Source: a phage
DNA length: 44,954 nucleotides
Strand: one strand, 5' to 3'
Sequence record: OZ503098.1
This document shows, one piece after another, positions 11,061-15,363 of the stretch. Positions within the stretch are counted from its first letter, which is position 1. Each line of letters opens with the position of its first letter. The position numbers and the translations under genes are program-made. The notes beneath the pieces are model-generated. The model saw only the letters and a list, made by a program, of their open reading frames with translations. It ran no database searches and was not told the DNA's origin.

Positions 11061-11849
11061 TTAACGGCGGCGACGTTTGCGTGGCGCTTCGTCTTCGTCG
11101 TCGTCCTCATCTTCGTCATCGCGTGGCTTACGACGTTTGCGAGGTTTTTCATCTTCCTCATCGTCGTCGTCATCGCGGCGCTTGGACTTTTTGGACTTGC
11201 GCGGCTTGTCATCTTCATCATCGTCATCACGACGTTTTGACTTCTTAGCCTTGCGCGGTGCTTCGTCTTCGTCTTCGTCGTCGTTGTCCAGGTCTTCATC
11301 GGAGCAAGAAGAACCACCACCACCGAAGGATTCGCCGTCATCGCGGAAGCGCAGACCCAGCAAGCCAGCACCGAGTCCCTTGCCGTTGGTATTGTTCCAC
11401 GCCCAGATATCGAGTGACACGTTGCAATAACAACCGGAGTAGATCTCCTGGCCTTCGATCTCGTCGCCGTCGATGGTCAGGCCTTGTTCAGTCTGCTTCT
11501 CGCCGAGTGACGTTTGAATGATCGGCTGTTTGAACGATTTAGCGTTGATGTACAACATGCCTTCGAATTCTTCGGTTACTTCATCGCGCTCGTCGCCGTC
11601 GCGAACTGCGCATTCCTTAGAATCCTGGGCGTAGTGGCGGTCCATCCACTTATCGGCATTCTTCTCAGATTTCAGCTTGTCGGTGAGCACTGCGCGCGCT
11701 GCCGCTTCCACTTTGTCCACCTGCGGATCTTCTTTATCCAGAAGAATCACGGCGCGGTATGCTGGTTTTTGTCCATCCTGTTTAGGGGTATCACGTTCCC
11801 AAATTTTCAGGAAACATACGCGCACATTTTTCAGGTTGACTTTAGCCAT
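11061..11849 (-). CDS. Putative single-stranded DNA-binding protein (DUF2815-like) with a long acidic/basic repeat tail
   Basis: N-terminus MAKVNLKNVRVCFLKIWE resembles the DUF2815 phage SSB-like N-terminus; located next to a DUF2800-like nuclease and PolA. C-terminal about 80 aa are three reiterations of DDDDEDD / KPRKSKKSKRR blocks. ATG 11849 has a GAGGAA RBS. Confidence 0.45.
   Translation of the reverse strand: MAKVNLKNVRVCFLKIWERDTPKQDGQKPAYRAVILLDKEDPQVDKVEAAARAVLTDKLKSEKNADKWMDRHYAQDSKECAVRDGDERDEVTEEFEGMLYINAKSFKQPIIQTSLGEKQTEQGLTIDGDEIEGQEIYSGCYCNVSLDIWAWNNTNGKGLGAGLLGLRFRDDGESFGGGGSSCSDEDLDNDDEDEDEAPRKAKKSKRRDDDDEDDKPRKSKKSKRRDDDDDEEDEKPRKRRKPRDDEDEDDDEDEAPRKRRRR
11080..11290. repeat. 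In-frame tandem repeat (about 60-bp units, three copies) encoding the acidic/basic tail of the SSB-like protein
   Basis: Repeated GTC/GTCGTC/ATC and CTT/TTT/GCG runs at DNA level; the protein shows the RRDDDDEDDKPRKSKKSKRRDDDDDEEDEKPRKRRKPRDDEDEDDD periodicity. Confidence 0.5.
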
Positions 11850-11939
11850 TTTCCAATTCCTCATTTTCACATGTATCGGGGTTATTGGAAGCCACCCCGT
11901 TCGGCTTGGTTGCTAATCTACTTGGTTGCGCCTGAGCGG

Positions 11940-14057: not shown

Positions 14058-14085
14058 TAAAAATAGGCCCGCAGATTAGCGGGCC
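14058..14085 (-). terminator. Hairpin plus U-run on the minus strand inside the early leftward operon
   Basis: Minus-strand GGCCCGC-uaaucu-GCGGGCC followed by UAUUUUU; lies between stop 14094 and start 14045. Confidence 0.4.
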
Positions 14086-14093
14086 GGATAATA

Positions 14094-14219
14094 TTAATCT
14101 TCACCGCCGAGTTGTTTATAAACCTCGTCCGGGTCGTCGCCTCTTTCTTCGCAGAAGGCGGTGAATGCCGCCCAATTTTCTGCTATGAAATCGAGCATGA
14201 TTCTCATTTCATAGTCCAT
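14094..14219 (-). CDS. Hypothetical small protein (41 aa)
   Basis: Internal ATG 14219 of the 14094..14435 ORF (MDYEMRIMLDFIAENWAAFTAFCEERGDDPDEVYKQLGGED), starting just after the stop of the upstream gene at 14224. Confidence 0.3.
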   Translation of the reverse strand: MDYEMRIMLDFIAENWAAFTAFCEERGDDPDEVYKQLGGED

Positions 14220-14223
14220 GATA

Positions 14224-14769
14224 TTAATCTTCCAGTTCGAAATAAGTTTCGACGATTTCTTTAAGATCTTTGTGGAAGTCTTCGACGTCTTCATCTTCCA
14301 GCTTGGCGATTGATTTGATCTCAAACGATTCCAGCAGGTCGTCAAATTCGTCGTTCGCGTCGTCGTCGTCACCACCCGCGATAATAGCGGCGTACTGTTT
14401 GATTTCGTCGCGCATCTCTGCCAGCGGGTCGGCATCTTTCTTACCTTTGCCTTTCGCCGGTGCTTTTTTACCCTTCGCGGGCTTCACGTCATCGGCATCA
14501 TCGTCGTCGTCGTCATCTTCTACGACTTCTTTTTTGGCCTTGCCTTTAGACTTGGTTTCTTTTGCCGCGCCTTTTTTCGTTTTAGGCGTATCTTCGACTT
14601 CGTCCTGATCGTCGTCGTCTTCGACTTCAGTCTCCGGCTTGGCCTTGCCTTTCTTAGCAGTGCCGTTTGCTTTTGGGTCTACGGCAGCGCCAACGGTTTC
14701 ATAATGCTTAGCGATGGTTTCCAGTGCTACTACGCCGCGAGTAATCAGGTTTACGATTTGTTCAAACAT
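14224..14769 (-). CDS. First leftward early gene: highly charged low-complexity protein (181 aa) with alternating poly-Asp/Glu and Lys-rich blocks
   Basis: ATG 14769 with GGAGATATACC RBS; EVEDDDDQDEVEDTPKTKKGAAKETKSKGKAKKEVVEDDDDDDDADDVKPAKGKKAPAKGKGKK; first gene downstream of the divergent control region. Confidence 0.55.
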   Translation of the reverse strand: MFEQIVNLITRGVVALETIAKHYETVGAAVDPKANGTAKKGKAKPETEVEDDDDQDEVEDTPKTKKGAAKETKSKGKAKKEVVEDDDDDDDADDVKPAKGKKAPAKGKGKKDADPLAEMRDEIKQYAAIIAGGDDDDANDEFDDLLESFEIKSIAKLEDEDVEDFHKDLKEIVETYFELED

Positions 14770-15033
14770 GGTATATCTCCGATTGGTTAAGTTTGGCGTC
14801 CGGGCGGTATGCCCGGTCGACGAGGGAGATATTAGATTGGTTGCAGAAGGGAGTCAACAACTAATTTCAAAAAAAAGCGCCGAGGCAAAATGCAACGGCG
14901 CTAACCAATAAGAGACAATGAGACGGGAATTATTATTACACGCGTGCGCGCCCGTTTCAATATTCCAAAGAAGTTGACACCCTACGGTTTTAGGTGTAGT
15001 TTCGTTGGTCATTAACCAACCGAGGACAGAGCA
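14770..15033. promoter_or_regulatory. Divergent early control region: leftward promoter (about 14932-14960, TTGAAA-17-AATAAT on minus), rightward promoter (about 14974-15002, TTGACA-17-TAGTTT), leader hairpins at 14800-14816 and 14867-14902
   Basis: Only place where the two strand blocks diverge; consensus TTGACA -35 on plus; back-to-back -35 elements 14 bp apart flanking palindromic ACGCGT/GCGCGC words; minus-strand hairpin AGCGCCG...CGGCGCU followed by U8. Confidence 0.5.
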
Positions 15034-15363
15034 ATGAATGTAAACGACGCAATCGAAATGTTAACGAAGACTGTTAGCAGTGAAACAAGCCGGTCATGGG
15101 CGTATACCGATGCCGTGGGTGCGGTGCTATTTGAAATCGAACGTCTGCGACTTACCGAAAAAGAATTGCGCGCGAAGCTGGAATTACTCAACGGTACTGC
15201 AGCAAGCAAGCTGCAAAAGCACAATGAAGAAATGGAAGAATACAAAAAGCAGGTTATCCGTTTGCGCGCCGAGGGCAAATCCTGGGCGATGATTGCCGAG
15301 TTGACCGGAATTAATCAGAGCACTGTGCGCTCCTGGGTGCGCAATAATAAAACTTCCAAATAA
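15034..15363 (+). CDS. Helix-turn-helix DNA-binding regulator (sigma-70 region 4 / LuxR-type HTH at the C-terminus)
   Basis: C-terminal RAEGKSWAMIAELTGINQSTVRSWVRNN is a typical HTH (region-4-like); N-terminal coiled-coil-like segment; GAGGA RBS; first gene of the rightward block. Confidence 0.6.
   Translation: MNVNDAIEMLTKTVSSETSRSWAYTDAVGAVLFEIERLRLTEKELRAKLELLNGTAASKLQKHNEEMEEYKKQVIRLRAEGKSWAMIAELTGINQSTVRSWVRNNKTSK

Follow-up and report, generated by a model that had tools for sequence, protein, structure and literature searches.

We analyzed the gene at positions 14224 to 14769 (minus strand) of the phage sequence OZ503098.1, a stretch of 44,954 nucleotides hereafter referred to as the window, and find that it is a strict core gene of the replication-recombination module in about 640 phages (Dhillonvirus and Guernseyvirinae). 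Its product, termed the acidic protein below, combines a conserved N-terminal helix (N-helix) with a variable, disordered and highly charged linker and an acidic helical C-terminal domain (C-domain). As a tentative reading, which we prefer at present, the acidic protein may serve the replication-recombination machinery of the phage as an electrostatic adaptor or hub of flexible build. This reading rests on the core status of the gene, its fixed position within the module, the presence of two conserved elements joined by a variable tether, an abundance resembling that of the single-stranded DNA-binding protein (SSB) of the module, and a charge pattern shared with the SSB tail. The gene and its parts are arranged as follows:

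14224 to 14769, minus strand: coding sequence of the acidic protein (family phrog_3127), from the ATG start through the stop codon, 181 amino acids
14698 to 14769, minus strand: N-terminal amphipathic helix, residues 1-24 (MFEQIVNLITRGVVALETIAKHYE), predicted as a helix over residues 2-24 by AlphaFold2 (AF2) and the most conserved segment of the protein
14428 to 14697, minus strand: disordered polyampholyte linker, residues 25-114, in which Lys/Ala/Pro/Gly blocks alternate with D/E runs (+-+-+)
14227 to 14427, minus strand: acidic C-domain of three predicted helices, residues 115-181, net charge -19, delimited by the AF2 model and by selection

The reading frame of 14224..14769 can be regarded as certain, because the ratio of non-synonymous to synonymous substitution rates (dN/dS) is low, linker lengths change in frame, and the ortholog of phage EE09 has been found by mass spectrometry (MS). 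A comparison of 20 genes revealed 11 distinct linker lengths, every one of which preserves the frame. The protein contains 31 D, 28 K, 23 E, 21 A and 11 G residues, with 54 acidic residues facing 30 basic ones; 46% of its residues are charged, which results in a net charge of -24 and an isoelectric point of 4.4. Charges of like sign are strongly clustered, as judged from a Das-Pappu delta of 0.156 compared to 0.066±0.013 in shuffled sequences (z=6.7), and none of 2000 shuffles reached the value of the acidic protein. Among the 104 open reading frames (ORFs) of the window with a length of at least 100 amino acids, only the acidic gene and the SSB gene combine an extreme charge content with such segregation. 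The first-pass annotation had called the alternating charge pattern unusual and had proposed an analysis of disorder and charge pattern; this analysis bears the description out, as the ORF is real, the blocks are segregated and the linker is predicted to be disordered.

In the AF2 model, the C-domain is formed by helices spanning residues 115-132, 136-148 and 159-177 with a predicted local distance difference test score (pLDDT) above 90, and the score stays below 50 across residues 27-107. Modeling with a deeper alignment and a short-linker variant yielded a pLDDT of about 80-86 for the C-domain and about 50 for the N-helix, at a predicted template modeling score of 0.52. Because the N-helix is still predicted yet not confidently placed against the C-domain, the models suggest that it is free for interactions and does not join the C-domain bundle as a fourth helix. 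Three residues of the N-helix, R11, A15 and E17, are invariant throughout the family (44 aligned sequences), and the conserved positions of the C-domain include R120, I123, G133, D134, D144, L145, L146, D159, D161, V162, F165 and Y176. Both ends of the protein are under purifying selection, with a dN/dS of 0.08 for the first 30 codons and of 0.04 for the C-domain at a proportion of synonymous differences of 0.18-0.30.

The linker that connects the two elements carries a net charge of about 0, with a fraction of charged residues (FCR) of 0.53, a net charge per residue (NCPR) of -0.04 and a block segregation of z 6.7. Among 105 relatives from a large protein database, which apparently are Dhillonvirus orthologs, residues 1-30 and about 112-181 are near-invariant. 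The middle of these proteins, in turn, is assembled from a module of the form KKEVVEDDD(x)EDEKPAKxKKAPAKGKA, which is present 0-3 times, and their lengths range from 115 to 181 amino acids. The shortest natural variant (P0093; 115 amino acids) has no acidic block at all in the middle. At the level of DNA, the linkers of relatives contain a true tandem duplication of an 81-90-nt module. In the window, Tandem Repeats Finder (TRF) detects no 81-90-nt repeat but just a 3-nt run, and the direct repeats that are present are 60-77% alike and reflect runs of GAC/GAA codons. Judging from these sequences, the module copies in the window have diverged.

The window is Dhillonvirus DNA: it shares about 90-95% nucleotide identity with more than 140 Dhillonvirus genomes (HK578/SSL-2009a-like coliphages), and the acidic gene is found in 155 Dhillonvirus records, where it is always annotated as 'hypothetical protein'. 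The acidic protein matches phrog_3127, a family of unassigned function, over its full length (E 8e-50; residues 1-181 versus profile positions 1-178 of 178), and so do 34 of 34 diverse relatives; the ortholog of phage welsh is labeled VOG1545. Pfam contains no family above threshold for the protein. Matches to DUF6669 (E 0.029) and BUD22 fell below the threshold, were not common to the relatives and were rejected.

An exhaustive profile search of 1.84 billion representative proteins added about 40 further representatives, which share the three-part layout with few fragmentary or divergent exceptions. Their N-helix is of the type MLDKFLALLERFVVAHELIAAN, followed by a variable linker of K/R/P/A and D/E residues that contains AT-hook-like RGR motifs in some members, and their C-domain is of the type LRxEIxxMAxxIxxGDSDxCADxFDDLLExYxVRxVxKLxDEDVxxFHxxLKxIVxKYYxIED. 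In three members (P0110, P0111 and P0116; e.g., Salmonella phage St162), the C-domain is tandemly doubled behind a single N-helix. Across the 34 diverse members, the linker varies in length between 24 and 97 amino acids and is not conserved in sequence, at a median NCPR of 0.00 and a median FCR of 0.45; 27 of these linkers show block segregation with z>2. The C-domain is acidic in all 34 (median net charge -13). As the charge pattern is kept without conservation of the linker sequence, it appears to be selected in the family and not to result only from recent repeat expansion.

A distant family member matched 487 further phage records, which comprise Jerseyvirus, Kagunavirus and Cornellvirus as well as phages of Serratia, Edwardsiella and Pantoea. 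One of the family members, from Salmonella phage MB78, carries the legacy label '13.88 kDa late protein', and all other database records name the protein 'hypothetical'. Two records in this region, MG065648.1 ('Campylobacter phage A144') and OQ221563.1 ('Acinetobacter phage NJ01'), share about 92-97% identity with coliphages of the genus Dhillonvirus and may reflect a wrong host assignment or contaminated samples.

The genomic position of the gene is equally well defined. In 44 of 44 viral loci fetched with the family profile, it lies between the helicase-primase gene and a block with the order [83-aa ORF], DUF2800 PD-(D/E)XK exonuclease, Enc34-type SSB (PF10991) and family A polymerase. This position holds even where the flanking module proteins are only 26-66% identical and where the orientation of the helicase-primase gene differs. 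The numbers of phage records agree, with 155 + 487 for the acidic family, 650 for the SSB and about 650 enterobacterial ones for the helicase-primase, and their genus breakdowns coincide; we therefore consider the acidic gene a strict core gene of the module. The first-pass annotation had stated that homology to a known housekeeping phage protein would overturn its interpretation. Our result comes close to this, given a strict core gene of the replication module in a fixed position, even though the function itself is unassigned.

The protein is translated and abundant in infected cells. In a study of phage vB_EcoS-EE09, MS of infected cells at 25 min detected no more than four phage proteins, and these included CDS56 and the SSB ortholog CDS61 (EE09_61); CDS56 was not among the proteins detected in virion lysates. 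EE09_56 corresponds to the acidic protein with a spurious N-terminal extension of 60 amino acids, and the supplementary file of that study lists no peptides for CDS56. The literature we searched contained no functional data on the acidic gene: CRISPRi-ART screens did not include this phage group, and the transcriptome paper on the Kagunavirus K1B4 does not name the gene. Thus, what is already known is a hypothetical protein in the databases, encoded in about 640 genomes. As far as the searched literature shows, the architecture, the core-gene status, the copy-variable polyampholyte linker and the parallel to the SSB tail have not been described before.

This parallel concerns the following two features of the window:

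11061 to 11870, minus strand: Enc34-type (T7 gp2.5-like) SSB, matching PF10991 with E 2.3e-31
about 11064 to 11342, minus strand: C-terminal tail of the SSB, 93 amino acids, with four acidic and four basic blocks in alternation and the end PRKRRRR

The SSB tail (DEDLDNDDEDEDEAPRKAKKSKRRDDDDEDDKPRKSKKSKRRDDDDDEEDEKPRKRRKPRDDEDEDDDEDEAPRKRRRR) and the linker of the acidic protein have in common a pattern of an acidic run followed by (E/D)xP(K/R)(K/R). An alternating tail is present in 116 of 116 SSBs of the clade with a classifiable tail, 72 of which also possess a basic tip. Both within Dhillonvirus and in the clade as a whole, the tails contain between 1 and 4 modules. Purely acidic SSB tails have been described for Enc34, T7 and other prokaryotes (PMC5686142), and we could confirm this for the tail of the Enc34 SSB. 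Neither viral contigs nor a large protein search yielded Enc34-type SSBs from outside the clade, only in-clade sequences, and Enc34 alone served as the outgroup of this comparison.

How might these properties work together? Under the adaptor reading, the acidic protein would be an abundant, non-enzymatic and largely disordered accessory of the DNA replication-recombination module. Its acidic C-domain would attach to a replication protein, either at a basic surface that binds nucleic acid or at a basic tail; the leading candidate is the gp2.5-like SSB encoded in the same module, with Arg/Lys blocks and, in many cases, a basic tip in its tail. For the N-helix, we envisage binding to a second partner or self-association. 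The linker, multivalent, charged and free to vary in length, would extend the reach of the protein and add weak multivalent contacts. We infer the binding partners and the adaptor function, and likewise any condensate-like behavior, from the features described above. In T7-type replisomes, contacts between acidic tails and basic patches of gp2.5 and gp4 hold the assembly together (PMC5686142).

Two points weigh against the adaptor reading. First, the numbers of blocks in the linker and in the SSB tail do not co-vary (rho about 0 across 36 loci), so that the link between SSB and acidic protein is qualitative only. Second, a shared mutational process that is tolerated in disordered regions is a possible explanation of the common pattern. 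A more far-reaching version, which we regard as rather unlikely, is that the acidic protein and the mixed-charge, basic-tipped SSB tail form a multivalent electrostatic hub or condensate at replication forks, in a manner similar to PopZ or viral phosphoproteins. Such an assembly would concentrate and organize helicase-primase, polymerase, exonuclease and SSB, with the N-helix as a client-binding or self-association site, and the number of linker modules would tune its material properties.

Several alternatives draw on the way the gene is expressed, and the surrounding features are therefore listed here:

14777 to 14780, minus strand: Shine-Dalgarno sequence GGAG, 7 nt 5' of the ATG and conserved in the alignment
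14829 to 14857, minus strand: putative sigma-70-like promoter P2, TTGACT-17-TAATAT, found by a consensus scan, with its function inferred
14094 to 14219, minus strand: accessory acidic ORF of 41 amino acids (phrog_15754), between the acidic gene and the terminator
14066 to 14085, minus strand: intrinsic-terminator-like hairpin with 7 G-C pairs and a T-run, found by a scan, closing the short unit
15034 to 15363, plus strand: gene of a 109-amino-acid protein with a C-terminal helix-turn-helix (HTH) as its only Pfam match (HTH_23 / Sigma70_r4_2)

The strong ribosome-binding site (RBS) noted earlier is indeed present, in the form of the GGAG motif. The -35 hexamer of P2 and its flanks are conserved in 10 Dhillonvirus loci, and its -10 hexamer differs at few positions. 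The terminator at 14085-14066 has been annotated independently in phage PTXU06, and of three distant lineages examined, two (loci L033 and L018) have a similar hairpin behind the gene. Judged by sequence, the transcription unit looks short, with the acidic gene, the 41-aa ORF and then the terminator, and this terminator would allow the acidic protein to be made in large excess over the downstream enzymes. Apart from the window, L006 and L015 are the sole carriers of the 41-aa ORF in the set of 44 fetched phrog_3127 loci; outside this set, welsh, Sponge and PTXU06 are also annotated with a small ORF in this place, and EE09 has none. The 41-aa ORF is a minor accessory element inserted into a conserved transcription unit. 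The earlier description of the gene as the promoter-proximal member of a leftward operon holds for the window, where it has its own P2, except that the unit is short. It does not extend to the family: in loci L017-L036 the helicase-primase gene is divergent from the acidic gene as in the window, and in the Jerseyvirus/Kagunavirus-type loci L037-L046 it lies upstream and in the same direction, so that the acidic gene is not promoter-proximal family-wide.

The intergenic region between the divergent genes contains further elements. On the minus strand, a conserved promoter P1 (TTGAAA-17-TG-TAATAAT, about 14960-14932) points leftward and is followed after ~60 nt by a conserved terminator, GCGCCG-N13-CGGCGC-T8 (14901-14869), just upstream of P2; the divergent locus L031 keeps a hairpin and T-run there with another stem sequence. 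The stretch 14869-14960 is a candidate for a small RNA of ~55-60 nt or for an insulating terminator, and Rfam gave no match to the putative small RNA. A likely rightward promoter of the HTH and helicase-primase genes (TTGACA-17-TAGTTT, about 14971-14999, plus strand) stands back-to-back with P1; its -35 hexamer is invariant in ten loci, and it was read from the sequence, not reported by the consensus scan. The motif AACCAAT/ATTGGTT occurs four times (14776-14789, 14824-14842, 14902-14915 and 15012-15033), overlaps both RBS regions and the P2 spacer, and is a candidate operator of the adjacent HTH protein. This 109-aa protein is variously labeled transposase, resolvase or 'DNA recombination nuclease inhibitor gamma' and, as far as its sequence indicates, is more likely a transcription regulator or an origin-binding factor. 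The gamma label belongs to this neighboring gene and was rejected as an identity of the acidic protein. An insertion of ~150 nt between P2 and the RBS in L003, L006, L008, L009 (HK578) and L014, which the window lacks (near 14800), is the source of the spurious 60-aa N-terminal extension in EE09_56, P0001, P0005, P0024, P0080 and P0082.

Among the alternatives to an adaptor, a DNA-mimic decoy fares best, although we consider it doubtful. Here, the C-domain would sequester a host enzyme or nucleoid protein, e.g., RecBCD (as lambda Gam and T7 gp5.9 do) or HU/H-NS, in stoichiometric amounts. The outcome would be either protection of the linear genome during replication or a remodeled nucleoid. 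The last 70 residues of the protein, 112-181, comprise 27 D/E and 6 K/R, with many acidic positions conserved as acidic, and the protein is abundant in infected cells and endowed with a strong promoter and RBS of its own. In lambda, gam precedes bet/exo, and in T7, gene 5.9 precedes the gene 6 exonuclease; by analogy, the acidic gene sits just upstream of a PD-(D/E)XK exonuclease and an annealing-type SSB. As all members of the clade would profit from inhibiting RecBCD, core conservation is compatible with a decoy. Against it speaks that no similarity in sequence or fold to Gam, Ocr, ArdA, Ugi or other mimics was found, and that known mimics are compact and rigid while half of the acidic protein is disordered. 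Moreover, conservation is highest in the N-helix, a hydrophobic amphipathic element for which a pure decoy would have no use. Finally, the family diverges about as fast as phage replication proteins do (C-domain and helix are about 30-55% identical between genera), whereas the candidate host targets are highly conserved among Enterobacterales.

It is improbable that the acidic protein modulates transcription by binding host RNA polymerase (RNAP) or sigma factor, in the manner of T4 AsiA/gp33 or sigma region 1.1, and so switches transcription or couples it to replication. The phage does appear to depend on host RNAP, as indicated by its sigma-70-like promoters, the protein is small, acidic, helical and abundant, and the historical name of the MB78 member refers to a late protein. 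Nevertheless, no similarity to known RNAP-binding phage proteins was found, the fixed position in the replication module, away from regulatory genes, would be left unexplained, and the adjacent HTH protein is the more obvious regulator.

The first-pass annotation had raised, next to modulation of the host nucleoid, a first-expressed DNA mimic that counters restriction, with type I restriction as the proposed check; Ocr and ArdA block type I enzymes in this manner. This explanation found no support in our analysis, and we judge such a role very unlikely. The gene is promoter-proximal in the window, and its product is very acidic and highly expressed, as an Ocr-like inhibitor would be. However, neither the query nor 34 family members matched Ocr, ArdA, Gam or other Pfam families at E≤0.1, PDB sequences gave no match either, and no solved structure or fold resembling the acidic protein was found. 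The acidic runs, which are the basis of the claim, lie in the stretch of residues 27-107 that is predicted to be disordered (pLDDT<50) and are dispensable, as seen from P0093. Their disorder, their variation in copy number and their loss in this variant imply that the D/E runs cannot constitute a rigid DNA-like surface. Accordingly, the D/E runs do not form a rigid B-DNA-like acidic array of the kind seen in Ocr. The folded C-domain, in turn, is very acidic, with no fold match to mimics, and might act as a DNA-like electrostatic decoy toward some DNA-binding protein, be it from the phage or from the host.

The genomic evidence points in the same direction. Anti-defense genes usually are variable accessory genes, unlike the strict core gene described here, and the gene is not promoter-proximal in Jerseyvirus-type genomes. 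In the BASEL study, Dhillonviruses are described as comparatively sensitive to type I and type II restriction-modification (PMC8594841), which argues indirectly against an Ocr-like inhibitor. Type I sites are also depleted in the 45-kb genome: EcoKI sites, AAC(N6)GTGC, number 0 versus 7.5±2.6 expected (Poisson P about 5e-4), EcoAI sites, GAG(N7)GTCA, 0 versus 3.9±1.9 expected, and EcoBI sites 2 versus 4.2 expected. Such avoidance is a passive form of escape and would argue against a potent inhibitor.

The least probable alternative is that the functional element is the DNA itself, i.e., iterons of a replication origin placed, as in lambda gene O, where the linker-coding sequence tolerates them: the gene adjoins the helicase-primase gene and the divergent promoter region, relatives carry the tandem 81-90-nt duplication in their linker DNA and one record annotates a repeat_region there, but TRF finds no such repeat in the window and the copies are only 60-77% alike, their number ranges from 0 to 3 with one relative having none, neither a short motif resembling iterons nor an AT-rich segment next to it was observed, and in distant members the charge pattern persists on DNA and protein sequences that are unrelated, which argues for selection at the protein level.

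The two Dhillonvirus genes with published roles were considered as identities of the acidic gene and rejected. Ksap1, the trigger of KpAvs2, is a different gene whose product has 74 amino acids, and it lies at another locus, between methyltransferase and phosphatase genes. Anti-Tmn is likewise a different gene, the accessory ORF35 of phiSMS22 with a fold of helices plus beta-sheet, and is absent from phiSMA8; the acidic gene, unlike anti-Tmn, is present in SM_A8 and corresponds to CDS0050 in SM_S22.

Hundreds of coliphages and Salmonella phages used in biocontrol and therapy studies belong to the Dhillonvirus/Guernseyvirinae clade, and the acidic gene is the one strictly conserved, highly expressed gene of the clade's replication module without a known function. 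Defining the helix, the polyampholyte linker and the acidic domain, together with the SSB parallel, turns a 'hypothetical protein' into a concrete and testable object. It also corrects a plausible yet misleading reading, since being acidic and early does not equal being anti-restriction. If the replisome hub were true, small phages would organize replication via disordered electrostatic scaffolds, and about 640 sequenced phages, small siphoviruses, would possess a dedicated, separately encoded disordered scaffold for DNA replication. If the decoy were true, a further class would be added to the known DNA mimics. The data so far point to no mechanism that specialists would find surprising.

Compared to known systems, the closest positional counterpart is ORF3 of phage Enc34 (locus L129, 3681-4055; Casjensviridae, Chi-like), which occupies the same position as the first gene divergent from primase and regulator genes and is likewise followed by exonuclease, Enc34-type SSB and PolA. 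Its N-helix is similar ('GIFEQLL...LLE.L.AN'; 30 columns aligned by hhalign, P≈3e-4, probability 40%), and its layout is alike, with a helix, a Lys/Thr/Gly-rich linker, a helical C-terminal part and an acidic tail. It differs in a C-domain that does not align and in having no alternating acidic blocks (22 acidic and 14 basic residues), and its SSB partner differs as well in possessing the classical acidic tail. Homology between the two proteins is plausible but unproven, because the profile-profile comparison aligns the N-helix only. Several UniRef entries name the Enc34 ORF3/Chi-like family 'RecT protein', for which Pfam gives no support.

Lambda Gam, T7 gp5.9 and T7 Ocr are likewise small, acidic and abundantly expressed early proteins, and Gam and gp5.9 are, by analogy, similarly encoded just upstream of a phage recombination exonuclease. 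They differ from the acidic protein in being compact and rigid and in having no sequence or structural similarity to it; neither a Pfam Gam match nor a Gam-like fold was found.

A further resemblance, in layout, is to PopZ of Caulobacter, an overall acidic protein of about 180 amino acids in which a short interaction helix at the N-terminus and three helices at the C-terminus flank a charged, disordered linker of about 80 amino acids. The acidic protein has an analogous arrangement of N-helix, disordered linker and C-terminal helical block, as predicted by AF2 and kept in 34 relatives. The linker of PopZ is Pro/Glu-rich, acidic and non-alternating, unlike that of the acidic protein, and none of 34 family members matched the Pfam PopZ family (DUF2497) at E≤0.1. 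Paramyxovirus phosphoproteins show a looser resemblance that may be seen in architecture alone.

With the acidic tails of T7 gp2.5, T7 gp4 and bacterial SSBs, the acidic protein shares disorder and high charge, which in these tails serve protein-protein contacts in a T7-like replisome, and like T7, the module encodes a gp2.5-like SSB and a family A polymerase. Unlike these tails, the acidic protein is a separate polypeptide of 181 amino acids with a folded acidic domain and an N-helix, its disordered part is a neutral, blocky polyampholyte instead of being purely acidic, and in this clade the SSB, too, deviates from the classical acidic tip. Taken together, the acidic protein is best filed among the charged, disordered tethers and hubs of replication machineries.

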